A DNA stretch of 64,000 nucleotides from an uncultured Nitrospiraceae bacterium (GTDB lineage: Bacteria > Nitrospirota > Thermodesulfovibrionia > Thermodesulfovibrionales > SM23-35). Made by a program: the position numbers and the translations under genes. The notes below the pieces were generated by a model. It ran no database searches and had not been told where the DNA came from. It worked only from the letters and a program-made list of their open reading frames with translations. Below are positions 15,295-58,732 of the stretch, piece after piece. Within the stretch, counting starts at the first letter, position 1, and each line of letters begins with the position of its first letter. The stretch covers positions 312,589 to 376,588 of the forward strand of contig CAVSHB010000004.1 of assembly GCA_963727775.1 (NCBI GenBank), written 5' to 3'.

Positions 15295-15391
15295 TAAGAC
15301 ATGAAATACATTAAACTGTGTTAGCAATTTTTTAAAAGTGAACTCTTTAAGAATTAAAAGTGAACCCTTGTTAAAGGACGGAATAGGAAGG

Positions 15392-15436
15392 AAATGAACG
15401 AAGTGAAAGAGTGCGTTTTTCACTTCGTTCATTTTT
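15392..15436. terminator. Hairpin downstream of the transposase, inside the IS end
   Basis: AAATGAACGAAGTGAAA / TTTCACTTCGTTCATTT inverted repeat. Confidence 0.55.
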
Positions 15437-15439
15437 GCT

Positions 15440-16696
15440 TTACCATATCGGCAAATTCAAATCCTTATTTTTAGCTCGTTGGACGTCAACGAGGTGGCCG
15501 TTGCACCAGAATCTGACTTCAGAGAGAATCTTGTTCATGGGATAAATGCGGATATTCACCTTTTCACCTGGGGTAACATGATTAATTTTCAGGACCAGGT
15601 TATTGATGGATATTCTACGGTGAGAATCAACAGTTCTGTTAAGCCTTAGACAAAATATATCTTTGGGGGATTGATAGGGAGGGATAACTTTGAACCGTCT
15701 AAAAAGGGACGTACCTTCTTTTAATGCTTTTTGGAATCTGAAATATGGGACTTCCTGAATTGTGGAATGTACCTGACGGTAATTATATCTGTGGATTTCC
15801 TGATTGAGTATAGTTTGCGCTCGACTTATATCAGCCACATCTTCTCTGACACATGTTCTGACAAGTCTATCTTGGAGCCATTGATAAGGCCGTTCAATCT
15901 TCCCTTTTGCTTGGAGAGATAATGCATAGATGATTTTTACGTTGCAGTCATATAGAACCTGCTTCCATTGAGGGTCTGCTTCATCAGTTATCTTATGATG
16001 CTTGCGCCAGAAAGAGTCTCTGCCCTGCACAAACCGGAAGATAGAGTGTGAATCAACATAATAGGAGAAGGGTAAGCCGTGTGTAAGGATCAGGCTTTCC
16101 AGAGCGAGGATATGTGCCCACGAGGTTTCCTTCTTCAGCAATTTTGCGTAGAGGATATAACGGCTGTAATCATCCAGAGAAGTGATCAAATACCATTTCT
16201 CTTGCGCGTTCGGTGCCCAAAGGTGATAGGAGGAATCATGCTGGATCAATTCCCCGGCATAGTTGGTCAATACTTCCCGGTCATGAACGGTTCTTTTTGG
16301 CTTCCTCAGATAAAAGTCGTTCTTCTTGGCTCTGTCAATGATCGTAGATAGAGCCACCGTCTGCTTATATTGCCTTTCCAGACGATCTTTGATATAGCTG
16401 TAGTTGTAAGAGCGGACGGGTACATCTTTGTCCTCTATCAACTTCTTCTCAATTACTAATTCTTTTAAAATATTGAATTCTACCGCTTCGGGTATCGCTC
16501 GGGTTTTGCCTTTCCGTACATACTGTATCGTGAATGCGGAAGGATTATAACGATATGCTTTTACTAAAGCAAAGAACCTTGTTTTGTTAATCCCAAGAAT
16601 CTCTTGGAGATATTTTCTCCCTACCTCTTCCCTTAGATATTTCTCGATCAGTTCCTTGACTTGTTCATCGGTGAACTTCCTGTGTAACTGTGTCAA
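15440..16696 (-). CDS. DDE transposase (rve-type)
   Basis: QHDSS, YVDSHSIF, AKGKIER motifs; TTG start with SD AGGAGG. Confidence 0.9.
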   Translation of the reverse strand: MTQLHRKFTDEQVKELIEKYLREEVGRKYLQEILGINKTRFFALVKAYRYNPSAFTIQYVRKGKTRAIPEAVEFNILKELVIEKKLIEDKDVPVRSYNYSYIKDRLERQYKQTVALSTIIDRAKKNDFYLRKPKRTVHDREVLTNYAGELIQHDSSYHLWAPNAQEKWYLITSLDDYSRYILYAKLLKKETSWAHILALESLILTHGLPFSYYVDSHSIFRFVQGRDSFWRKHHKITDEADPQWKQVLYDCNVKIIYALSLQAKGKIERPYQWLQDRLVRTCVREDVADISRAQTILNQEIHRYNYRQVHSTIQEVPYFRFQKALKEGTSLFRRFKVIPPYQSPKDIFCLRLNRTVDSHRRISINNLVLKINHVTPGEKVNIRIYPMNKILSEVRFWCNGHLVDVQRAKNKDLNLPIW

Positions 16697-16850
16697 AATA
16701 CGAGCCTCCTTTTTTGATGCTCATATTACACTTTCTCAGGTGTTCACTTTTAATTCATAAATTCGATTATAACGGTTCACTTTTAATTCGTAACTGACAG
16801 AAATACATTAAACTGTTGACAGTCTTCATATTACATGATAAGATTTTTAT

Positions 16851-18946: not shown

Positions 18947-19207
18947 TAGTCCGGTCCCACCTCGGAGCTCCGTTCACTATTTACAGAGTCACCCACAGGC
19001 TACGACGGATTGTCAAATTACCGACAACTTGGCTGACATTTTTGTTCAGAAAATAATTTTCTATTAACTATGCCCGCCGTGCATATCCCGGTGAAACATG
19101 CCACTCATTCCGCTGGTAAATGGGAAACAACGCCATTGCATTACAAAGACAACTTCGTTAAGTACACCTTATGATATACTGGATAAAATTGTATTTTCCA
19201 ATGAGCA

Positions 19208-19810
19208 ATGAACCTCCCCGCCGCAGAGACGGCGGGGTATCTCGGAAAACTCTCACCAGCGATGGCATCTTTAAATTTTGAACAGTTTTAGCTGACCTGT
19301 GCGCCGCTCTATTTCAGACTTATCCAAAGTCTGATTCCTTATGTATCGCTTAATCACTTCTTCATTTGTTGCATCCCCGACCGTTCCTATGTCCTTGCCG
19401 TCACTCCAGAATTCTCCACCCCACAATTCTACTTTCTTCATCTTCGGAAATTCTTCGAATACTCGTTTCGCCGTTATCGACTTAATTACGTTCAGCACCT
19501 GACTCGGGCTATATTGCGGTTGAGCACCGCAGAAGATATGTATATGATCCTCATCAAATCCAATTTCATCGATTACAATATTGTACCGTTCAGTAATTCC
19601 CCTCATTGTCTCTCTGATACATTTCTCAACTTCCTCATTCAACAAAACCTTACGGTACTTTACAGCAGTCACCAAATGGTATCGAATCTTATAGACCGCA
19701 TGAGGCCTCTTTCCCAGTTCCATTGTAACAGCATTATAATCCCCCAAACCCCCTTTTCAAAAGGGGGTTCACGGTTTCCCCCCCGCAGAGACAGCGGGGT
19801 TTATAATTTA
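19208..19810 (-). mobile_element. IS200/IS605-family tnpA-only element, copy 1 (603 bp)
   Basis: Subterminal hairpins at both ends. Near-identical to 52808-53410, and the boundaries are set by where the two copies stop matching. Target TTAAT lies 5' of the left end; the right end is TTCAT. Confidence 0.9.
19271..19723 (-). CDS. tnpA: Y1 HUH transposase TnpA
   Basis: YHLV..VKYR, DHIH (HUH), KS.TA, FWS.G, YIRNQ catalytic Tyr. Confidence 0.92.
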   Translation of the reverse strand: MELGKRPHAVYKIRYHLVTAVKYRKVLLNEEVEKCIRETMRGITERYNIVIDEIGFDEDHIHIFCGAQPQYSPSQVLNVIKSITAKRVFEEFPKMKKVELWGGEFWSDGKDIGTVGDATNEEVIKRYIRNQTLDKSEIERRTGQLKLFKI

Positions 19811-19820
19811 ATTAATACTA

Positions 19821-20960
19821 ATGATTAAAATAATGATAGTCATCCATAGCCTGAAGGGAGGCGGTGCAGAAAGGGTGGTCGTAAACTTGCTGAAGGGCTT
19901 AAGTAGAAGAGACTTCTCCATGTCACTCTTATTATATGAGGGTACATTTGATTATCTTCTTCCAGAAGACGTTGAGGTTATCACATTAGATATACCGTCA
20001 AGCAGAAATATTTTAAAGACAACAAGAGGCTTTATTTTGAAAATTATCTCGTTTTCCCGTTTAATAAAAAAGAACAAACCTGATATTATTTTTAGTCTTT
20101 TGAGTGGTACGAATGTCGTCGCAATTTTAGCAAGATCACTATCGGGGGTGCATAGTAAAGTAATAGTAAGCGAGAGAAACCATCCCTCCCTAAGTCTCAA
20201 GAACGAACTGTATGGTGGAACCACAAAACTTCTTATGAAAAGATTTTATCCAAAGGCAGAAAAGATAATAGCAATATCTCAGGGGATTAAAGAGGATTTA
20301 ATTAAAAACTTTAATCTTTCCGCAGAAAAAATAGAGGTTATTTACAACCCCGTGGACATAAAGGAGATTGAAACACTTTCAGCAGAAGAGCTAAGTCATC
20401 CGTGGTTTAACGATGGTCTGCCAATAATTATTTCAGTTGGACGACTCACATATCAAAAGGGCCATTCCCATTTAATAAAGGTTTTTTCTATAGTAAGGCA
20501 GTCTCTTCCATGTAGGTTGTTCATCGTTGGCACGGGAGAAGAAGAAGAAGAAAATCTCATGAACATGGTAAATGCACTGGGCCTGAAAAATGACGTGGAA
20601 TTTTTAGGCTTTCAAAGAAACCCTTTCAAATATATGGCAAGGTCATCGCTTTTTGTTTTGTCATCTCTCTATGAAGGTTTTGGCAACGTCATAGTGGAAG
20701 GTATGGCGTTGGGATTACCAGTTATCGCCACAGACTGTCCCTCAGGCCCTTCTGAAATAATAGAGCATGGAAAGAATGGACTCTTGGTTCCGCTAAAAGA
20801 CGAAAGAGCGTTAGCGCAGGCAATTTTATATGTACTAACGAATGATGAGCTGAGGAAAAAATTATCCAATGAAGCCAAGACGAGAGCGCAGTTTTTTGCT
20901 TTGAACAAAAGAGTAGAACAATATAGCGACGTTTTTCTCCGAACTTCTCAGGATCAATGA
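19821..20960 (+). CDS. Glycosyltransferase family 4
   Basis: GGGAER, VGRL..QKG, SSLYEGFGNVIVEGMALG, DCPSGP; AT-rich relative to neighbours. Confidence 0.92.
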   Translation: MIKIMIVIHSLKGGGAERVVVNLLKGLSRRDFSMSLLLYEGTFDYLLPEDVEVITLDIPSSRNILKTTRGFILKIISFSRLIKKNKPDIIFSLLSGTNVVAILARSLSGVHSKVIVSERNHPSLSLKNELYGGTTKLLMKRFYPKAEKIIAISQGIKEDLIKNFNLSAEKIEVIYNPVDIKEIETLSAEELSHPWFNDGLPIIISVGRLTYQKGHSHLIKVFSIVRQSLPCRLFIVGTGEEEEENLMNMVNALGLKNDVEFLGFQRNPFKYMARSSLFVLSSLYEGFGNVIVEGMALGLPVIATDCPSGPSEIIEHGKNGLLVPLKDERALAQAILYVLTNDELRKKLSNEAKTRAQFFALNKRVEQYSDVFLRTSQDQ

Positions 20961-21334
20961 AAAGAGATGAATTAACCCCGATGCCGAGTCTACCCGTAGG
21001 TGACGGAAACAGGTAGATGAGGATAGATAGAGAACAAAATGAGAATCAGATAAACGGCTAAGCCAATAGTGGCACCGGGGAGTCTGCTAAACCTTGATCC
21101 CCTGTCGCTCATGTCAAATCGAGTTTGCCTCGCTTAAGCTGCTGATTAGCGGTTCGGATATCGCCGTGCATGTTTCGGATAGAAGTCGAGACTTCCTCTG
21201 CCAGAGTTGCAGGTTTGCTCCGGAACAGGTGGCAGGATTGGCTCGGAATCTGCCTGCCAAGTCTTTCGGAAGACATCATTGAAAATATCAAATGAAATAT
21301 GATATAAAATGGATATTTTTAAGAAAGGAGGTTT

Positions 21335-21540
21335 TAGTTTAAGGTTCAGTTTTCAGTTTCGCTGGCTGGAAGCCAGGGAAGAGGAGTGAGCCCCTTAGGC
21401 GATTCTCCCGCTGCCCCGCAGCCGTGAAGGGAACGAAAGCCTGAAATAAGCCACTGTCCCGAAACATATCGGGATGGGAAGGCAGGCAAGTAGGTTACAA
21501 CTTAATGTAAGAGCCCTAAGCCGGAAGACCTGTCCAGACC
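21335..21540 (+). promoter_or_regulatory. Cobalamin riboswitch
   Basis: AGGGAA..., CTGCCCCGCAGCCGTGA, GCCACTG...TGGGAAGGC, and B12-box AGCCGGAAGACCTG, upstream of a TonB-dependent receptor. Confidence 0.88.
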
Positions 21541-21583
21541 AAAATAATATATTCCAAAACAATGTTTCCCGAGGGAGGAAGAA

Positions 21584-28631: not shown

Positions 28632-28860
28632 AAGATTTACTTTACATTAACCTCATATTACCAAGGAATAATTAAATTATTACAAAAAGTAAATTTCTGT
28701 TATTTTCCTTATCTTTGTCTTAATTTTTTATAAACCTCACACATTAATTAATTAAATTTGAAAATTTTTAGCTTGCTATAAGATACATTTTTATTTTATC
28801 TTAGGATATGGAAAAAATATATAAAACTAAGGAGGTTATTGCCACGATTATCGTGCAATC

Positions 28861-29034
28861 GCCTACCCTGTTCGTGATAGGGTGAACTTGTTGATCCGGC
28901 AAGTTAGATCTTTTGGGAGTTCGGGTAAAGAGTTGGTGTGCATGTCTCCCTCGAGGAGAAAGCCTAAAGACTCTTTCAGAGCACCCACCTATAAAACAGG
29001 CGGATCTAATTTCGCTTTACACGGCAGGGTGGGT
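28861..29034 (+). ncRNA. ssrS: 6S RNA
   Basis: Long rod: closing stem CCTACCCTG..CGTG / CACGGCAGGGTGGG, inner stems TTAGATC/GATCTAA and AAAGAGT/ACTCTTT, CACCCACCT on the 3' side. Located upstream of rny. Confidence 0.75.
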
Positions 29035-29168
29035 TTATTTTTATAGGCTGGTTCTTATGACGATATTTTTTTGGAGGATTATACATAAAAATTATATGAT
29101 AGAGAGCAGATGGAAATTTGTTTTCAAAATTAAGGAATTCCCGCCTCCAAAAATCTTGTCGGCGTCAT

Positions 29169-46656: not shown

Positions 46657-47064
46657 TTATTTCCTCTGTTCTAATTCGAACGCCTTCCCTGCTTTGCCTG
46701 CCGCGTTCTCGGCCCTGCTTGCTGCTTCCTCTGCCCTTTTTGCTGCCGCTTCCGCCTTATTCGCCGCTGCTTCGGCCCTTCTTACCGCGGCTTCTGCCTT
46801 CTCGCAACAGTCCTTCGCGATTTTCATCGCCTCCTGGGCCAGAGATTTCGCTTCACGCGCGTCTTTTTTGGCCTCGTCAATCTCAGCAATCTTGCCCTCA
46901 AGCGCGCTTACTCTCGATTCTATAGAAGAGACTCTCGATTCAAGCTTGCTGATTCTTTCAACCAATGGTTCTATCTGCTGACGCACATAATCCTTTGAGG
47001 CGCACCCCAAAAAAAATATCGATAACAAAGGAACCATCAATAAAATCGAAACTGTTTTTTTCAT
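46657..47064 (-). CDS. Alanine-zipper lipoprotein (long paralog)
   Basis: Lipobox FLGC, heptad coiled coil, AEAAA repeats, C-terminal Lys. Confidence 0.75.
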   Translation of the reverse strand: MKKTVSILLMVPLLSIFFLGCASKDYVRQQIEPLVERISKLESRVSSIESRVSALEGKIAEIDEAKKDAREAKSLAQEAMKIAKDCCEKAEAAVRRAEAAANKAEAAAKRAEEAASRAENAAGKAGKAFELEQRK

Positions 47065-47134
47065 TATTTACACCTCCTTTATCACCAAAAAATGCTTTTC
47101 TAAAAAGTTTTAAAATAACCGGTCAAAATTTAGC

Positions 47135-47353
47135 TTATTTTTCCTGCTGCAATTCAAAAGATTTTTCACACTTCTTCGCTGCGTTTTCAGCTCTCCTTGC
47201 AGCCGACTCAGCCCTATCACAGCATTCCTTAGCCTCAAGTTTGCTGATCCGCTCTACGAGAGGCTCCACCTGCTGACGAACATAATCCCTTGAAGCACAT
47301 CCCAAAAGCAAAAGCAATGAGAGAGACATAATTATTAAAGCCGCTTTTTTCAT
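47135..47353 (-). CDS. Alanine-zipper lipoprotein (short paralog)
   Basis: SD AGGAGG, lipobox LLGC; shares CASxDYVRQQxEPLVERISKLE and FELxQxK with its neighbour. Confidence 0.75.
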   Translation of the reverse strand: MKKAALIIMSLSLLLLLGCASRDYVRQQVEPLVERISKLEAKECCDRAESAARRAENAAKKCEKSFELQQEK

Positions 47354-47463
47354 TTCCACCTCCTTTTTTAATGAAAAGCTACCTTTTATCTTTGCCGCTT
47401 GCCTTTTCAAGCGACTCTCCTGCGCTCTCGATGTCTATTCACATTATTTTTCGTTTGAATAAA

Positions 47464-47668: not shown

Positions 47669-48987
47669 TCAATTACCGTGTAACAGTCTTTTGATATTTT
47701 TCATTTCATCGCGGAAAGACTTTGCTTTTTCAAACTGAAAATTCCTGAATGTCTTGATTTCAAGACCGCTGAATGATTCTTTCATCTTGACGGCCCCATC
47801 AATATCTGTCCTGAATATGCGCAGATCCCGCAGCATGTTCAATGTTTCTTCATGCGGATGGCCGAATGAATTATCACGGCCGACGCTGATAACCGCGGCC
47901 TCAGGAGGGACCTCTTTAAGAAAGGATTCACAGGCAGATGTCCTCCCGCCATGATGAGGGACCTTTATGACATCGCATTTAAGCCATCCCCGCAGATGGA
48001 TGATGTCTTCTTGCGCCTCTTTCTCTATGTCCCCGGTAAAGAGAAAAGATGTATGGTTTCCCGCGATCTTCAGTACCAGCGAATCGTTATTTTCCGAAAC
48101 ACATTCGTTCTTGTTCATTGTATAGAATTCAGGGTATGGGTGCAGGACATGCATTTTATATCCGAATCCCTCGATTACGTCTCCTCTACCCAATGAGCGG
48201 TGTTTGATATCAATCAGGAAGTCAGGCAATATAATCCGGCCGTTGTCCCAGAGTTCTTCCACCTTGAATTTTTTTGTAAGGTAATCCGATCCGCCGGTAT
48301 GGTCGGGGTGAATATGGGAGAGGATCAGAGCATCAATAGTCTTCTTCCCCCTATATTTAATGAATGAAGCCGTTTCCCTGCCTGTTTTTCCTGTATCTAT
48401 TACTATGGTTTTTCCGTCAGGAAGTTCAACAACCGATGAATCTCCCTGCCCGACGTCGAGGAAAGTGGGAGTGAGGCTTTTTTTATCGGAGATCGACAAT
48501 AAAAAACAGACTGCTAAAGGGATAAAAGGAATTAACAGTAATTGTTTTCTTTTGTCGAACAGGAAATAGAATAGAAATCCGGCATAAAAAAACACGATTA
48601 TTATCGGCGGGAAAGCCGGTATCTTTATGTCGGCGAACGGTATCCCGGAAAACAATCTCACGAGAAAAATACTTGCATCGGAAACCACGGACACTACGGG
48701 AGTAGTTATGAAGTGGCCTGTAATTAGGAACATAAAAGATGAGATCACGGACAGAGGTATAAGTATGAAGCCTATCAATGGGGCTATGAGGAGATTCGAT
48801 ACGGGAGAGATTATCGAGAAATAGTGGAAATAATACGCCACCAAAGGCGCGGTGCCGATTGACGCCGAAAAGGTCATCAATGAAGCGTCTTTTATGTATC
48901 CGACGATTTTCCTTTCTTCTTTTTTATCGTCTTCGCCGGACCGAACCGAAAAACCGATGAATAACACCGCAAGGAAAGAAAGCTGGA
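47669..48987 (-). pseudogene. comEC: comEC fragment 3 (end of Competence domain + metallo-beta-lactamase domain)
   Basis: QLSFLAV, FLDVGQGDS, LSHIHPDHTGG, NNDSLVL, VPHHGG, FGHPH, RTDIDGA. Confidence 0.92.
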
Positions 48988-50260
48988 GTAAACTACCCTG
49001 CGGCAGAGACCGCAGGGCGTTCAAAAGAACGGATGCGGGCGGCAGAGTTTGCAGTTCCAAGATAAGGAGTAATAGCAGTAGGAGCATGGACTGCGATAGG
49101 TTTGTTTACCGAACCCTTTAAGGCAATATTAATGCTGGCGTTAAGATCAGCGTTTACGGTAAAACCACAGGAAAGACAGGAAAAAACGGATTGAGACTTC
49201 CGGTTGGACTTAGAGATAAAGCCGCATGCGGAACAGGTCCGGGATGTACTGCGGGGATCAACCGTGATAACCGGAATACCCGCTATCTTGGCTTTGTATC
49301 CGATAAAACTGTCCAACTGGAGGAAAGACCAACTGCCAAGCCGTTGCCTATCTGCCTTACGAAACCGTGTCCGAAAGCTTATGCCCTTCAAATCTTCAAG
49401 GGCGATGGCTCTCTCCGTGTCTTTGGCCATAGCAACGATCTTCTTACTGATGCAGTGATTCACATGTTTTCTGAATCGCGCTTCTTTCTTGGCAATCTTT
49501 TTAAGATGTCTCTTAGCGGACTTAGAACCACACTTCTGGAGGTCCCTTCTAATCTTGGACATGCGTTCTCTGACAGCATCGACCTGTTTACCGGAAAATG
49601 TCTCGTTATCCGAAGTGTGGGCTATGCTAACGATGCCCTTATCGACACCAAGTATCCCTATTGGAGTGAACGGGGTGCCGTCAGGCATTTCTATAACTAC
49701 GTTCAAGAAGAACTTGCCGTTCTCAAGGGTAAGGTCGGCCTGTCCTCTCATCCTGTTTTTATCGAGGGAAGCATAAGGTCCCCAAAAGACAATAGGGACT
49801 TTCAGTCTACCATCCACGGAAAGCATGGAGGCAACCTCAAGATTCTTGAAAGACAGAAGCCGTTGGTCATAAACAACTGCAGAGTATTTCTTGAACTTAT
49901 GCAGCACTTTCTTATCAGTGCGATAGGACTGAGATACTTTATCGATCGCGCGCACACAGAGCTGAGAAGAAAGAGGAAATTTGTCACGAACCTCTCTATA
50001 GACAAGATGGTGGAGCGGAACTTGGCTGAACTTGTTATTTTCAAAAGCGACCTTCGATATATAGTTGCAGGCATCATTAAAAGTTGCCATGGTCTTTTTG
50101 AGCGATTGATACTGGTTCGCATTTGGAAGAAGCTTAACCTTAATCGTAAGTTTCATGTGTTTAGTATAGGATATTTTTTATCCATGAGCAAGTCTAAAAC
50201 AAATAGGAGGATGGCTCCTCCCTGTAGCAGAGACTACAGGGTGTCCGCCACACAATTTTA
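48988..50260 (-). mobile_element. IS1341-type (TnpB-only) IS200/IS605 element, 1273 bp
   Basis: Left-end hairpin CCCTGTAG-TCTCTG-CTACAGGG and right-end hairpin CCCTGCGG-TCTCTG-CCGCAGGG. Inserted 3' of TTCAT, ends TTTAC, no target duplication. Removal gives in-frame SPS-F-QLSF. Confidence 0.92.
48993..50156 (-). CDS. tnpB: RNA-guided endonuclease TnpB
   Basis: RuvC D (GVDKG), E (IALEDL), D (NADLNAS); Zn finger CSAC/CLSC; TSRTC. Own promoter TTGCTC-17-TATACT. Confidence 0.93.
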   Translation of the reverse strand: MKLTIKVKLLPNANQYQSLKKTMATFNDACNYISKVAFENNKFSQVPLHHLVYREVRDKFPLSSQLCVRAIDKVSQSYRTDKKVLHKFKKYSAVVYDQRLLSFKNLEVASMLSVDGRLKVPIVFWGPYASLDKNRMRGQADLTLENGKFFLNVVIEMPDGTPFTPIGILGVDKGIVSIAHTSDNETFSGKQVDAVRERMSKIRRDLQKCGSKSAKRHLKKIAKKEARFRKHVNHCISKKIVAMAKDTERAIALEDLKGISFRTRFRKADRQRLGSWSFLQLDSFIGYKAKIAGIPVITVDPRSTSRTCSACGFISKSNRKSQSVFSCLSCGFTVNADLNASINIALKGSVNKPIAVHAPTAITPYLGTANSAARIRSFERPAVSAAG

Positions 50261-51129
50261 ATGAAGGGCTGAACAAGGATTCCGGGTCCCATACAACTAT
50301 TACAAATGCGGCAAAAACCAGTGAATTAAGCCAGAAGCCTTTCCTGCCTATAAGAAGTCCCAGGAGGACTATGCTTATCATAATAAATGACCTGACCGCC
50401 GGAATGCTCGCGCCTGAAAGTCCGAGATATGCAAGCATAAACGGTAGGCAGAACACGGCGGCGATCTGAGAAGGAGTTAGAAAAACTGTTATCCTCTGAA
50501 GGACCCTGTACGGCATTGCGTTAATGAAAAATCTGAACACCCCGAACAACAGCACCGAGAAGATACCGAAATGGCTGCCTGAAATGCTGAGGATATGCGT
50601 CAACCCCGTTATACTAAAAGCATCTTTCGGTTCTTCGCTGATATTTGCCGTCTCGCCTGTTGTTATCGATTCAACAAATGCTCCCGAATCCTTCCCTAAA
50701 TTCTCTTCGATGAATGAATTGACTCTGTATCTGTTTTTTTCGATCATCGAATGCAAAGACAACCTTTGATTTCCTGAATTACGCACCTCTAAAAGGTTCG
50801 CATAAATATCGTCCCTTACCTGCTGCCCCGGATTAAGTCTTTGCCTGCTTCTTAATAATTTGACAATAAAATCATACTCAGTCCCCGCATCCAGCTTTTT
50901 ATCCGAAAACAACATGATTTCTTTTCCGTCCAGCGCATCGATCTTCTCGCCTGCCACGGAATTCACTGCCGACTCTACGGAAAAGGGTTGCCTGACAGTA
51001 CCTGCTTCGGTCTTTACCGGATATGAACTGCAAATACCCTTTACCTCGACATTATCTTTGATATGTGGGACATCGTGCGAAGGTTCATAACGCAAAAGGG
51101 CGTATAGTACCCCCGAAAGGATGAAAATA
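50261..51129 (-). pseudogene. comEC: comEC fragment 2 (DUF4131/OB region + start of Competence domain)
   Basis: TGLTHILSISGSH, GASIPAVRSFIM, WDPESLFSPS. Confidence 0.9.
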
Positions 51130-52807
51130 ATCTGGGAGGAGGTGGTCATAGTGGCCACCCCCTCCCAACAGAACGGCTCGTACCGGCCAGGTAAGCCGCT
51201 CTTCGATCGGTGTTGAACATTTGTTCCAGAGTTTCCTCCGTGACTTCTCGCTTCGTTAAAGATTGCCGGGTTGTGGGTGGCTTTCCGCCGAGAACCGGAC
51301 CTCTGCTGACCTCTTGGATTTATCCAGTCGGTATCTTCGAAAGATTCGAGTATCCCCACTTGGTTTTCTGGTTCCTTCTTTACCTCAACACTAATTCGGC
51401 TCTTTACCGGTGTCACTAACACCTTTCGTCCACAGCTTCCCATATCCCAATCACAACTTCGGGATATCCAGGCATGATGCAGCTACCTGCAACTTCCTGA
51501 TCGTCAGGGTTTTATCCTCCACTCTGTTACCAGGCTTCATCGGCCCTGAGTTATAAGTACTACCTGTGGATCTGCCACCCTCTGCACCCTTCCCGCTTCG
51601 GGTTCTCCTATTCGGTACGGTTTTATAGCGTTAATGACAGCTTCTAACGCCAGCGCAGTAGGGCTTCCCCGGGTAAGACGCACCACCTCACCATATCCCG
51701 TCCGGCTTCACGTCGGTTCGATTCTTCCGGATATCAGGCCTCGCCTATTCACGCCAGCTCGACCTTCTCCCCAACGCCATATAGCCGGATCGCTGTTCGC
51801 TACGGTCGGGTAGGACACAGGTGCAGTAGGTTTAGGCCAAGGACTTTCTGTTTCCCGCCCTTTCGTCTGCGGGTGCCAAAGAACCTCAGACCATGCTCCC
51901 GTTTCCTACATCCCCCACTATAATCCCGGACAGCGGGTTTTCCCCGATCCGGTTTGAAACGGACACTATCCCACCAGCCTTCCCTCATACACCTGCAAGC
52001 TTAAGTGATGGCACACATACACTTGCCATGTACGGGTTTGCTGTATGGCTCACCCTATATTAGGCAGTACAGTTCACGGACGCTCTGTGTCGTCCATTGC
52101 TACCTTGAACATAAGGCGCATCCGCCCAGGGCTCCTTTGCTCTGCAGACATTATATCCGCTTCATCGCTACTACAAGCCCATGCGCCAATCCTGTTGGCT
52201 CTCACTCCTACTTCGGTTTTATCCTTATAAGGAGTGCCCTTTCCGCTTGCTGCCATCCACGGCTGCCAATCAGCACCTTCTCGACTTTATGCTGTTTCTC
52301 TTTCCCGAAGTGCCATGCCCCCTATGTCGGCGGGTCACCAGGTGCTCATAACCAGTTCTTCCCTGATGACTACGGCCTTCACCTCCATGTACAGGCTCGG
52401 CTTCCCGCAACAACCTCACAAAACGGTTTCATGTGAGGGCAGATTTCGCCACGGCAGGCATTCCTTTATGTTACAGCCCTCCGGTTTGCTCGCCTCCCTG
52501 ACCGTTCGGCACCGCTATACGCAGCACCTGGAGACTTCTACACCTGAGCTTCCTGCCAATTCGTTACCTCCTTGGCAGTCAGGTATGCTATCCGGCTGAC
52601 TGGTCAATTGCCGGAACTGGTCTTCCACCAGTAAGAGATACATCTTTGTCGACTGCACTACATGGTTTCTGCCTCATGCTTCCTCCGGACATCCCGTTTC
52701 TGGCAATGCCCTTGCCTTGTTGGCGTTGTCCTTCCGTCCGGTAACGGTGAACTTTTACTTCCGGCATTCCTGCCAGAAGGACGGCGCGTGCGTCATGCCG
52801 GGCGCAC
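51130..52807 (-). mobile_element. ORF-less group IIC intron (outer), about 824 nt excluding the nested intron
   Basis: 5' GTGCGCCCGGCATG; IIC-like DI elements (GGCAAGGG..GGAAGC..GGCAGAA, CTTACCCGGGGAAG); short DV at 51170-51204; DVI hairpin; 3' end ...AT; inserted directly after a hairpin. Confidence 0.85.
51805..52658 (-). mobile_element. ORF-less group II intron (inner, IIB-like), 854 nt, nested in DI of the outer intron
   Basis: 5' GTGCAG; DV AAACCGGATCGGGGAAAACCCGCTGTCCGGGATT (51922-51955); extended DVI ending CCTACCCGAC; EBS1 TACATGG complementary to the upstream CCATGTA. Confidence 0.82.
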
Positions 52808-53410
52808 ATAAACCTCCCGGCCGCAGAGACGGCGGGGTATCTCGGAAAACTCTCACCAGCGATGGCATCTTTAAATTTTGAACAGTTTTAGCTGACCTGT
52901 GCGCCGCTCTATTTCAGACTTATCCAAAGTCTGATTCCTTATGTATCGCTTAATCACTTCTTCATTTGTTGCATCCCCGACCGTTCCTATGTCCTTGCCG
53001 TCACTCCAGAATTCTCCACCCCACAATTCTACTTTCTTCATCTTCGGAAATTCTTCGAATACTCGTTTCGCCGTTATCGACTTAATTACGTTCAGCACCT
53101 GACTCGGGCTATATTGCGGTTGAGCACCGCAGAAGATATGTATATGATCCTCATCAAATCCAATTTCATCGATTACAATATTGTACCGTTCAGTAATTCC
53201 CCTCATTGTCTCTCTGATACATTTCTCAACTTCCTCATTCAACAAAACCTTACGGTACTTTACAGCAGTCACCAAATGGTATCGAATCTTATAGACCGCA
53301 TGAGGCCTCTTTCCCAGTTCCATTGTAACAGCATTATAATCCCCCAAACCCCCTTTTCAAAAGGGGCTTCACGGTTTCCCCCCCGCAGAGACAGCGGGGT
53401 ATATAATTTA
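52808..53410 (-). mobile_element. IS200/IS605-family tnpA-only element, copy 2
   Basis: Near-identical to 19208-19810; inserted 3' of TTGAT within comEC codon 44. Confidence 0.92.
52871..53323 (-). CDS. tnpA: Y1 HUH transposase TnpA
   Basis: Protein identical to copy 1 in the ORF track. Confidence 0.92.
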   Translation of the reverse strand: MELGKRPHAVYKIRYHLVTAVKYRKVLLNEEVEKCIRETMRGITERYNIVIDEIGFDEDHIHIFCGAQPQYSPSQVLNVIKSITAKRVFEEFPKMKKVELWGGEFWSDGKDIGTVGDATNEEVIKRYIRNQTLDKSEIERRTGQLKLFKI

Positions 53411-53541
53411 ATCAATAGAAATCTTCTTTGCATACAGAGATAGATAGAGGCAAGCAAAAAAACAATAACAGCTGTAAAAGGAAAATAGTTGAACGAATAA
53501 AAAAGGACAACTCCTGCAAGGAAAGGAATGAAGAAAAGCAT
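53411..53541 (-). pseudogene. comEC: comEC fragment 1 (N-terminal TM helices)
   Basis: MLFFIPFLAGVVL... hydrophobic start; joins fragment 2 in frame (TTG AT|T ATT TTC). Confidence 0.85.
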
Positions 53542-53596: not shown

Positions 53597-54943
53597 TCAA
53601 ATCATTTTTTCTTTGATAACCTGTGCAATGTCATTCCCGATTTTTGTGATAAGCTTCAGGCTTTCGCCCTCGATCATCACCCTGACCTTCGGCTCCGTCC
53701 CAGAAGCCCTGACCAAAACTCTCCCCTTTCCGGCAAGTCTTTTTTCTGCGGCCTTTATTGCATCCACGATCTCGGGAATTGCATTAATATCCTGCCTATG
53801 TTCTACCTTAACGTTTGTCAGGATTTGGGGATAAAGTTTAATATCCTGAGCAAGTTTCGATAAAGAAACATCTCTTCTTTTCATTAGATACAATATCTGG
53901 ATTGCCGTGAGAGGACCGTCCCCGGTTGTATTGTTATCGAGAAAAATAATATGCCCTGACTGCTCGCCTCCGAGGTTGTAACCACCATCGAGCATTCTTT
54001 CCACAACAAATCTGTCTCCCACCTTCGTCCTCACAAGTTTTATATCATTCATTTCAAGATACTTTTCAAGACCGAGGTTGCTCATTACCGTTGATACTAC
54101 GGTATTCTTTCTGAGCATTCCCGTCCTTTTCATCTCTGCAGCCCACATACCCATGACCTTATCGCCGTCGACAATCCTGCCCTTTTCATCACAGCATATT
54201 GTCCTGTCGGCGTCCCCATCGTGCGCAATGCCGATATCCGCTTTATGGAGCTTTACGGTATTCTGCAGTTCTTCGACATATAAAGAACCGGATTTTTCAT
54301 TGATATTTATTCCGTCGGGGTTGTCATTGATCGAGATCACATCCGCGCCCAGTTCACGCAAAAGCAAGGGGGTGGTCCTGTATGCAGCTCCGTTCGCGCA
54401 ATCAACGACGATCCGCAGGCCTTCAAACGTCACTCCCTTCGGTATCGTTGATTTTATATATTCAATGTACCGCCCGGTCGCATCATCAAGGCGAAAGGCC
54501 TTACCGATATCCGAACCCTGCGGCCTGTTTTCCAAAAGCCTTTCATCAAGAACAAGCGCTTCAATCCTTCTTTCGATTTCATCGGGCAGCTTAAATCCCT
54601 CGGAAGAAAAGAACTTGATACCGTTATCTTCAAACGGGTTGTGTGAAGCGGATATTGCGATACCTGCATCCAGCCGCAATGTCCGGGTAAGGAATGCGAT
54701 CCCGGGGGTAGGGAGAGGTCCTACAAGTGTGACATTCATGCCCATTGAACATATCCCGGAGGTGAGCGCGCTCTCAATCAAATAGCCGGACAGCCTCGTG
54801 TCCTTTCCGATTAAGATCATATTCCTGCCGTGTTTTTCCCTTAATAAGAATGCAATGGCCATCCCTACTTTTAAAACGGTCTCTGGCGTCATGGGATGCC
54901 TGTTCACAGTGCCCCTTATCCCGTCTGTGCCGAAAAGTCTCAT
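53597..54943 (-). CDS. glmM: Phosphoglucosamine mutase
   Basis: FGTDGIRG, ISASHNP, DGDADR, GGEQSGH, RASGTEP. Confidence 0.97.
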   Translation of the reverse strand: MRLFGTDGIRGTVNRHPMTPETVLKVGMAIAFLLREKHGRNMILIGKDTRLSGYLIESALTSGICSMGMNVTLVGPLPTPGIAFLTRTLRLDAGIAISASHNPFEDNGIKFFSSEGFKLPDEIERRIEALVLDERLLENRPQGSDIGKAFRLDDATGRYIEYIKSTIPKGVTFEGLRIVVDCANGAAYRTTPLLLRELGADVISINDNPDGININEKSGSLYVEELQNTVKLHKADIGIAHDGDADRTICCDEKGRIVDGDKVMGMWAAEMKRTGMLRKNTVVSTVMSNLGLEKYLEMNDIKLVRTKVGDRFVVERMLDGGYNLGGEQSGHIIFLDNNTTGDGPLTAIQILYLMKRRDVSLSKLAQDIKLYPQILTNVKVEHRQDINAIPEIVDAIKAAEKRLAGKGRVLVRASGTEPKVRVMIEGESLKLITKIGNDIAQVIKEKMI

Positions 54944-56484: not shown

Positions 56485-56561
<77 letters not shown>

Positions 56562-57839: not shown

Positions 57840-58183
57840 AGAGTCTGTTTATAAAGTCAACCGCTTATACTACAATAGGTTACATCGTTTAACGATAAAA
57901 ATCAAAATAAGGCGAAAGGGAAGAGATGAAGAAGATACTGAACGACCTGAAGCTGAAACTTGAAAAGACGAACTGGACATTAGACCCGGAGTTGGCATTG
58001 ATAGACACAGTGTTAGAGCAGCACCCGGAGCTATTGGAGATAGTGAAGGGATATAATCGGGATAGGGAAGGACAGCGAGATAGGACGGCAAGATAGCCTG
58101 ACAGCAGAGCAGATAGTGAGAGCGGCTCTTTACAAAGAAATAAAGAAACTGGACTATCGTGAACTTGAATATGCCCAACACTA
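57840..58183 (+). pseudogene. Degraded transposase N-terminal fragment (ISNCY/IS5-like)
   Basis: Broken frame encoding TAEQIVRAALYKEIKKLDYRELEYAQH; IS-end-like AGAGTCTGTTTATAAA at ~57840. Confidence 0.45.
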
Positions 58184-58229
58184 AAGAACATCGTCACGAG
58201 CGGCCACATGGAGAGCCGACTTAAGAAAT

Positions 58230-58732
58230 GGAGGAGCTGTCATGGACTGGTGCAGTCGGAAGGTCCTGAGTTGGAGACTCAGCAACACCCTTGATGTTGA
58301 TTTCTGCGTAGAAGCCCTCAAGGAAGCTCTGGCAAAATACGGTAACCCAGCAATCTTCAACACGGCTAGGGTAGCCAGTTCACGAGCCTTGAGTTTACTC
58401 AGATACTCAATGACGCCAATGTGAATCTCTATGGACGGCAAAGGACGGTGGCGGGACAACATTATGGTCGAGCGGCTATGGTGCTCACTGAAGTACGAGT
58501 GTATCTATTTGCATGCATTTAAGACAGGCGGCGAGACAAGGAAAGGCATCGATAAGTGGATCAGGCGTTACAACGAAGAGCGTCCTCATTCTTCTCTTGA
58601 CGATAAAACGCCGCATGAGACATACTGGAACCTGCCAAAAGCAGGTTATCCGATAAAACTGGTGGCATGATGGATGGTGGGTTCCACCTTAAGTCAGCCC
58701 CAACACTGTCCAACCAATGGGGTCCACTTCTA
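58230..58732 (+). pseudogene. IS3-family OrfB C-terminal fragment with right end
   Basis: MDWCSRKVLSWRLSNTLD, frameshift at IFNT, MDGKGRWRDNIMVERLW.SLKYE, YNEERPHSSL; terminal CTGTCCAACCAATGGGGTCCACTT. Confidence 0.85.

Follow-up and report, generated by a model that had tools for sequence, protein, structure and literature searches.

In this paper we describe a comEC gene cut into three pieces by a nest of four mobile elements, found in a stretch of 64,000 nucleotides (the window) from an uncultured Nitrospiraceae bacterium (GenBank assembly GCA_963727775.1, contig CAVSHB010000004.1, positions 312,589 to 376,588). The nest consists of two elements of the IS200/IS605 group of insertion sequences (IS), here called IS1 and IS2, and of two group II introns, one inside the other (a twintron). 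The reading that we consider probable is that comEC was inactivated recently, in an IS-rich genome on its way to losing natural transformation, and that the nest grew by the ordinary targeting rule of each element; the loss is probably recent and one-way. With somewhat more confidence still, we propose that the outer intron belongs to a lineage, marked by the reverse transcriptase (RT) motif RWADD, an AGC catalytic triad and a 4-nt exon-binding site 1 (EBS1), which parasitises the right ends of IS200 elements and so adds a third class of hairpin target to terminators and attC sites.

Table 1. Features of the interrupted comEC locus, in window coordinates and in the order of transcription.
Feature	Coordinates	Strand	Remarks
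glmM	53597..54943	-	56 nt upstream of comEC, same strand
comEC piece 1 (codons 1-44)	53411..53541	-	ends with IS1 target motif TTGAT
IS1, tnpA-only IS200 element, 603 bp	52808..53410	-	boundaries from 6 other genome copies
TnpA (Y1 HUH transposase), 158 aa	52871..53347	-	intact; identical in 4 full copies
Outer ORF-less group II intron, 5' part	52659..52807	-	starts with GUGCG; covers the first 149 nt of domain I
Inner ORF-less group II intron, 854 nt	51805..52658	-	RF02003 domain I; single copy
Outer intron, 3' part	51130..51804	-	RF02001; EBS1 GUGA at 51752-51749; open reading frame (ORF) deleted from domain 4 (D4)
comEC piece 2 (codons 44-334)	50261..51129	-	first half of Competence domain; ends with IS2 target motif TTCAT
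IS2, tnpB-only IS200/IS605 element, 1273 bp	48988..50260	-	boundaries from 1 other genome copy
TnpB, 387 aa	48993..50156	-	RuvC D172/E254/D337 and two CxxC pairs, aligned with solved Cas12f/TnpB chains
comEC piece 3 (codons 334-772)	47669..48987	-	second half of Competence domain and metallo-beta-lactamase domain

The joined comEC frame

The original prediction held that the comEC pieces rejoin in frame, and our translation agrees with it: 131, 869 and 1319 nt add up to 2319 nt and 772 aa with the terminal stop only, and the junction residues are L-I-I and S-F-Q. Its description of the second junction as the canonical SPSFQLSF has to be corrected, because S-F-Q is indeed formed but residue 332 is P here and L in 23 of 24 relatives. 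An alignment with homologues had been proposed as a check. The joined ComEC covers intact relatives over residues 1-768/770 at an identity of up to 63% (BLASTP), aligns without any gap to three of 24 relatives (L016, L026 and L028) and has no gap at either junction. All nine of the ComEC and metallo-beta-lactamase motifs tested are kept. As the nearest relatives are only about 63% identical, we counted changes at conserved columns instead of estimating dN/dS, taking as conserved those columns that agree in at least 90% of 24 relatives (five of 29 loci were excluded for having no full-length frame). The joined protein differs at 8 of the 188 columns, and intact relatives differ at 1 to 23 (one truncated row at 59). 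The joined frame, the alignment, the motifs and the conserved columns together show that comEC was recently broken and has not decayed.

comEC was matched in 155 of 161 genomes of the order, and among the matches listed it is nearly always one frame of about 750-890 aa. The comparison with related genomes that had been suggested finds no conservation of the arrangement among the relatives examined. One single-contig genome (L331, G031:C1:752000-762000) has only the C-terminal metallo-beta-lactamase part of comEC in the stretch examined. In the window, glmM is the likely source of read-through transcription into comEC; a promoter scan of the locus gave consensus matches only. Two tandem small lipoprotein-like genes with alanine-rich coiled tails lie downstream of comEC (46657-47410, minus strand).

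IS1 and IS2

The TnpA of IS1, its sole ORF, matches PF01797 (E 1e-34) and NF033573 (128.8 bits, cut-off 55). The seven genome copies of IS1 have subterminal hairpins and are inserted without target duplication 3' of a fixed motif, which is TTAAT in five copies and TTGAT in two. The copy in comEC departs from the sibling consensus by two private changes only, one in the hairpin (52819) and one in the cleavage motif (52810), both in the last 12 nt of the element and within 12 nt of the outer intron's 5' end. Its right-end cleavage motif reads TTTAT where the siblings have TTCAT (TCAT to TTAT), a change seen in this one of seven copies only. We took the register of the IS200 guide/cleavage pairing to be the usual one; judged by eye, both ends of IS1 and IS2 agree with it, as do the right ends of two other families. 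There are exceptions in this genome at left ends, of which four of six agree in one of these families and none of two in the other. In this register the right-end motif is complementary to the guide in six of the seven IS1 copies, and the comEC copy fails (TTAT against guide GATA), with a hairpin mismatch in addition. In IS608, four bases at the foot of the hairpin pair with the cleavage site (PMC3201880). The comEC IS1 is still a member of the IS200 family, but a damaged copy. Six of the seven variable sites among the IS1 copies fall in the element ends and not in the ORF, and because IS ends generally vary more than the ORF, the clustering of the private changes is only suggestive. It is possible that error-prone joining or co-conversion during intron insertion caused them. 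Elsewhere, a 1.6-kb element has inserted at a TTAA site into the IS1 copy at G000:C3:336918-334691, and another copy lies in the window at 19205-19824, just upstream of a glycosyltransferase-like frame; a different repeat element occupies 15319-16800.

IS2 has two genome copies and inserts after TTCAT, a motif found 15 times in the comEC sense strand against 4.4 expected. Its TnpB, which has the RuvC triad and a zinc finger, matches NF040570 (177.5 bits, cut-off 100). Both end hairpins are perfect in the comEC copy, and the other copy is frameshifted and has a mismatch in a hairpin. The right-end hairpin is identical to 10 other ends in the genome, several of them on elements with full-length tnpA. 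Judging from its perfect ends, IS2 could excise from comEC if TnpA acted in trans. The first ~20 nt of piece 3 are the predicted TnpB guide (guide position taken from PMC10055086), and because the guide would be the start of piece 3, a restored comEC allele is a predicted substrate of TnpB. The enzyme is intact and is predicted to cut the IS2-free comEC allele.

The twintron

The outer intron has a total of 824 nt, and neither intron has an ORF or a second genome copy. The boundaries of the outer (824 nt) and inner (854 nt) introns follow from an uninterrupted homolog in G189 (80% identical, with an RT ORF), which lacks the inner intron: query positions 1-149 are joined directly to 1004-1311, with 149 meeting 1004. 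Contigs from sequencing runs, of which four of nine were compared at 85% likeness and none had more than 8% of the words searched, give the same lengths. Contigs skip the inner intron, one in X4 by exactly 854 nt, and one in X2 (depth 2.1) skips 1273 nt at IS2. Since these runs come from different samples, probably of different strains or organisms, they confirm the boundaries and not excision. No RNA run is among those listed, which carries no information on expression.

The outer intron scores 32.4 bits with RF02001 (gathering threshold 32), is 80% identical to homologs bearing an intron-encoded protein (IEP), has the GUGYG and AY ends of group II introns, and has a D5 that folds, with an AGC triad and a 5-nt loop. 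In its fully paired D6, a C stands at -7 (51136) instead of the branch A. The branch A is present in all 14 relatives counted, and across 53 conserved 3' columns the outer intron departs nowhere but at the C of 51136. Nothing stands out in its 5' part, which has 5 departures in 273 conserved columns (relatives 0-18). The inner intron (RF02003, 80.7 bits, gathering threshold 49) starts with GUGCA, departing from GUGYG at position 5, and has kept the A at -7, a 5-nt D5 loop and a long D6 of ~110 nt. The 5-nt D5 loop of both introns is a feature of subgroups IIE/IIF, and the long D6 of the inner one a feature of IIF (PMC3753933). Since the inner EBS1 (52391-52385) is complementary at seven of seven positions to the last 7 nt of the outer intron before the insertion point (the intron-binding site 1, IBS1), the target of the inner intron was the outer intron. 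No close relative of the inner intron was found among 401 genomes or the loci examined. Short forms of the outer-intron lineage (815-1030 nt) occur at L096, L097, L103, L140, L156 and L064; L097 matches the entire outer intron at 82% identity, which shows the ORF-less form to occur elsewhere too. A further ORF-less group II intron in the genome (L008, G000:C4:120304-120970) is over the RF00029 cut-off and related to two RT-bearing introns of the same genome.

The junctions also speak to the order of events. The base after IS1 is T in all six other copies; in comEC it is the G of the intron, but T once the intron is removed. Pairing of the EBS1 loop amounts to -4.5 kcal/mol with a wild-type IS1 end, -2.3 with the present IS1 end and -0.7 with the comEC exon left after IS1 loss, which forms no hairpin. 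Because the T is restored and EBS1 pairs best with the wild-type IS1 end, the most likely order is that IS1 arrived before the outer intron and created its target. Only IS1 and IS2 are independent hits on comEC, the two introns having targeted other elements.

Hairpin homing of the outer-intron lineage

Both copies of the outer-intron homolog in G189 follow a hairpin, and one lies directly behind tnpA. A 20-letter pattern from the intron 5' end was found in at least 124 metagenome stretches and one viral stretch, which together with genome loci gives at least 139 matches with at least 112 distinct flanks. After dropping nine flanks without intron similarity and four that were too short, 99 were left, and with three tandem insertions set aside we obtained 96 sites, including the comEC site of the window. 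A hairpin, with a stem of 7 bp or more whose end lies 4-13 nt upstream, precedes 89 of these 96 sites, against 29 of 366 controls. In 44 of the 96, the Watson-Crick guide/cleavage rule for the right ends of IS200/IS605 elements is obeyed at the exact base. With the site moved by 1 nt the rule holds at 4 and 3 sites, with 2 or 3 nt at 4-14, and when the last four bases are permuted (1000 permutations) it holds at 11 sites on average and 20 at most. At 36 of the 96 sites the gene directly upstream is a tnpA on the same strand, and no site has one on the opposite strand. The tnpA profile was built from 13 proteins upstream of lineage introns; independently of it, Pfam recognises Y1_Tnp in 23 of the 69 ORFs upstream. 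Clustering into 69 flank families leaves a hairpin in 63, the guide rule in 24 and tnpA in 23. As other sites of the lineage include plain hairpins and the ends of other introns, we regard it as a hairpin-homing lineage for which IS200 ends are the main identifiable target and not the only one. At L089, L097, L125, L162 and L182 there are tandem arrays, in which one lineage intron stands directly behind the D6 of another.

The EBS1 of the lineage has 4 nt, usually GUGA, and of four variants two covary with their targets and two do not. It pairs at positions -1 to -4 in 53, 51, 36 and 42 of 56 relatives and at -5 in 17. An 8-nt EBS1 matching the comEC exon at seven of eight positions was rejected, given that pairing drops after -4 across the 56 relatives. 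The IEPs carry the RT motif RWADD, are 38-43% identical to class C-like references and form a long branch of their own, a placement that rests on two references and comes with a long-branch warning and one mistranslated row. The catalytic triad is AGC in the window and the relatives listed, for which the search pattern itself required AGC; L212 and L213 have CGC. Of the features of subgroup IIC, the lineage has the short EBS1 and the upstream stem-loop and lacks the CGC triad in D5. Our literature search, which lay outside most subscription journals, found no paper describing introns that home to IS200 right-end cleavage sites, and the excerpt of PMC7306698 has no mention of IS200 or IS605.

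Other transformation genes and genome context

Two other transformation genes of the genome are shifted in frame by a 1-nt deletion, dprA (G000:C3:162708-163789, L214) and comF (G000:C3:378590-379317, L215). In 29 of 30 relatives each, the dprA frame has 361-400 aa and the comF frame 231-297 aa. The background of such frameshifts amounts to four calls in 445 ortholog pairs (1.2 Mb of G023), one of which (rph) is clearly real. Frameshifts were also seen in rph itself, encoding RNase PH (G000:C3:99851-100562), and in Tex (G000:C2:295733-298010), which is outside the 445-pair sample. A search of the genome for comEA was uninformative, its only match being Tex.

Repeats make up 10% of the genome in 201 blocks. 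An empty-site screen found an ORF across the site in 36 of 188 repeat blocks, but it is too loose for counting disrupted genes. GC skew by element orientation is positive for 12 of 17 elements, a weak signal. Two tandem pilB paralogs, both intact, lie at G000:C1:429750-433395 and have 343 differences in 1815 nt in an ungapped comparison. The window further contains an IS3-like integrase remnant in pieces (58181-58670) and Rfam matches to 6S RNA (28857-29039), a cobalamin riboswitch (21324-21551) and a tRNA (56485-56558).

Is the nest reversible?

The original prediction called the four elements scarlessly removable and considered the nest a possible multi-step lock, in which two TnpA excisions and inner-then-outer splicing would restore ComEC in a subpopulation. 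On paper all four can be removed, but the removal signals of two of them, IS1 and the outer intron, carry lesions. A seamless join is no sign of selection for reversibility, because IS200/IS605 elements and group II introns always leave one. What speaks for a lock, apart from this join and the undamaged protein, are the intact TnpA genes for both end types in the genome, the 7/7 EBS1 pairing and branch A retained by the inner intron, and the precedent of a Trichodesmium twintron in a protein gene that splices sequentially (PMC4649490). Against it, the cleavage motif of IS1 is mutated. Cleavage-motif mutants of ISGst2 were excised at a wrong downstream boundary (PMC10055086), and the next TTCAT downstream of the comEC IS1 is 1683 nt away; in IS608 no synaptic complex formed when the motif was mutated (PMC3201880). 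Excision by TnpA is moreover not regulated, is counteracted by TnpB and happens rarely, at 0.7% in an assay in E. coli (PMC10055086). Once IS1 was lost, the outer intron would be left with neither a hairpin nor a matching IBS1. Its branch A is missing, and no cognate maturase was found in the genome, where the best RT match to the cognate IEP is 39% and all seven matches lie in frames of 207-246 aa split by other elements. With dprA and comF frameshifted, a restored ComEC would also be without partners, and the arrangement is not conserved in relatives. We therefore regard a reversible lock as very improbable. As to the group II intron RT genes, those at G000:C1:37099-41903, C1:477579-482407, C1:318061-319346 and C4:64-762 are all broken at one and the same PQG motif. 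A 3.5-kb three-recombinase (RIT-like) element sits in two of them, a third is a chimera joined from two RT halves, and the fourth runs out at the end of its contig.

An equally slim chance is given to a split ComEC, whose pieces would be translated without excision from in-frame starts inside the elements. There are indeed two such ORFs, one of 421 aa (51443-50178, minus strand) with an ATG in D4 of the outer intron, in frame through piece 2, and one of 472 aa (49087-47669, minus strand) with an ATG in IS2, in frame through piece 3. The first ATG, however, is not conserved in the G189 homolog, both products would have foreign ends, the break lies inside the Competence domain (Pfam 123/125), and again dprA and comF are broken. 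Still more remote is a mis-join of repeats during assembly. IS1 and IS2 are repeats, but every junction obeys the target rule of its own element and restores the frame, both introns are single-copy in the genome, and comEC is collinear with relatives.

A further explanation, which we consider unlikely though clearly less so than these three, is loss driven by conflict. The first hit on comEC would have been positively selected, as a cell that is full of mobile elements would not be cured of them without uptake of DNA, and TnpB, with comEC sequence as its guide, would spread the knockout and guard it like a homing endonuclease. Two of three clearly intragenic IS200/IS605 insertions are in comEC, the IS2 found there is the copy with an intact tnpB and perfect hairpins, three transformation-specific genes are broken and pilus genes look intact, and in Acinetobacter the interruption of comM by mobile genetic elements has been linked to such conflict (PMC11472951). 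However, the case is a single genome, and no lineage-wide hotspot is seen among the matches listed, although metagenome-assembled genomes from short reads hide insertions. The excess of IS2 motifs in comEC raises the chance rate, and neutral decay after one hit predicts the same picture. The suggestion that comEC is a hotspot where elements gain by disabling DNA uptake keeps some possibility, but only the two independent hits by IS1 and IS2 can be counted towards it.

Recent, one-way inactivation remains our preferred reading, and several observations weigh against it. The absence of stops and frameshifts from the comEC pieces fits a recent death and would also fit a maintained function. A G-T wobble at the guide position mutated in IS1 is accepted at two of seven IS1 left ends. 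Introns without a branch A can still splice by hydrolysis (PMC4748821), so a C at this position lowers splicing and does not exclude it, and L080, which is outside the 14 ends counted, also has a C there. The frames of comM, pilB, pilC, pilT and pilM-Q look intact. The comF deletion lies within a homopolymer run, and the deletions in comF and dprA, the branch change and the IS1 end changes could all be consensus errors of the assembly. Finally, with 17 IS200/IS605 copies examined, the share of intragenic insertions that fell in comEC is more than a random sink suggests.

Proposed history

Under recent inactivation, IS1 and IS2 would have inserted independently; at both observed sites the element stands 3' of its own motif without target duplication. 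The right end of IS1, a hairpin followed by a TYAY motif, would then have received the outer intron by reverse splicing at the position of TnpA cleavage. Before or after this, the inner intron would have homed into domain I of the outer intron through its EBS1 pairing, and both introns would have required an RT in trans. Reversal would have become harder since: the changes at the IS1 right end and the outer branch point are observed, and TnpB, if it acts as in the ISGst mechanism, would cut the IS2-free allele and favour re-copying of IS2. More tentatively, and we think this rather less likely than its opposite, the nest may be a self-tightening ratchet, in which the lineage reads the hairpin and tetranucleotide signal cut by TnpA, the arrival of the intron with error-prone 5' joining pinned IS1, and TnpB acting on wild-type comEC drives the loss of uptake through the population.

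The locus can be seen as an unusually clean record of transformation loss, in which the order of events is readable from the junctions while the gene is still undamaged, and a seamless in-silico join is no evidence of a switch. The part of specialist interest is the outer-intron lineage. An intron that lands on the base cut by TnpA offers a direct test of how hairpin-homing introns measure the distance to a stem-loop, and the TnpB with a comEC guide provides a natural setting in which to ask whether a host trait can be kept off by transposon retention.

Comparison with known systems

Reversible prophage switches in competence genes, such as Listeria comK, use one dedicated, regulated recombinase and a conserved site. 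As in comK, an element interrupts a competence gene here and could leave it intact; unlike there, no dedicated recombinase was seen in the nest, and the site is not conserved in the relatives examined. A closer parallel is Piscirickettsia salmonis, an IS-rich species in which comEC is broken in all genomes by several distinct elements at different positions, read as irreversible (PMC12955456). The original prediction knew of no description of the four-layer arrangement, and our literature search, with most subscription journals outside it, also found no paper on it, but the breaking of comEC by stacked elements is known from this species. In P. salmonis, however, comEC is eroded and comF and dprA are intact, whereas in our genome the comEC pieces are undamaged, the frameshifts are in dprA and comF, and the nest includes group II introns.

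Among introns, the TeI3/TeI4 introns of Thermosynechococcus elongatus (PMC2882425) are similar in being ORF-less introns mobilised in trans, in forming twintrons, and in having a family (F4) that occupies a conserved site of ISEL1, an element of the IS200 family. The Thermosynechococcus introns are close relatives of one another, were retargeted through long EBS pairing and have their driver IEPs present. In our genome there are two unrelated intron types and no cognate IEP was found, and the outer lineage uses a 4-nt EBS1 and a hairpin at many different IS ends. The Trichodesmium twintron (PMC4649490) is likewise an intron within an intron in a coding gene with an inner-then-outer order, but it splices in vivo and is conserved in metagenomes, while the comEC twintron is single, branch-mutated and flanked by an IS.

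Hairpin homing defines the IIC introns (PMC7923331, PMC12584367). The subgroup IIC or class C introns, whose homing sites lie behind terminators or attC hairpins (PMC7923331, PMC4748821, PMC8919778), share with the outer lineage a short EBS1, an upstream stem-loop, a preference for T at +1, tandem insertion and an IEP without endonuclease (En-minus). The lineage differs from them in the AGC triad and 5-nt loop of D5, the RWADD motif of the RT, the long branch of its IEPs, and an IS200 right-end cleavage site as the commonest identifiable target. Two plasmid IEPs inspected from the top of the match list (38% and 43%) belong to CGC-triad introns. The g6/U1/U2 intron types, which are near class C, insert after predicted terminators (Miura et al., PMC8919778); the outer-intron lineage may be one of them, and it may help to explain the terminator-adjacent g6/U1/U2 introns in surveys. 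The IS elements, finally, resemble the peel-and-paste transposons ISGst and IS608 (PMC10055086, PMC3201880) in their hairpin ends, guide-paired cleavage motifs, scarless excision and a TnpB aimed at the donor joint. Mechanistically nothing sets them apart, and what is particular to this locus is that the donor joint is the wild-type comEC sequence.

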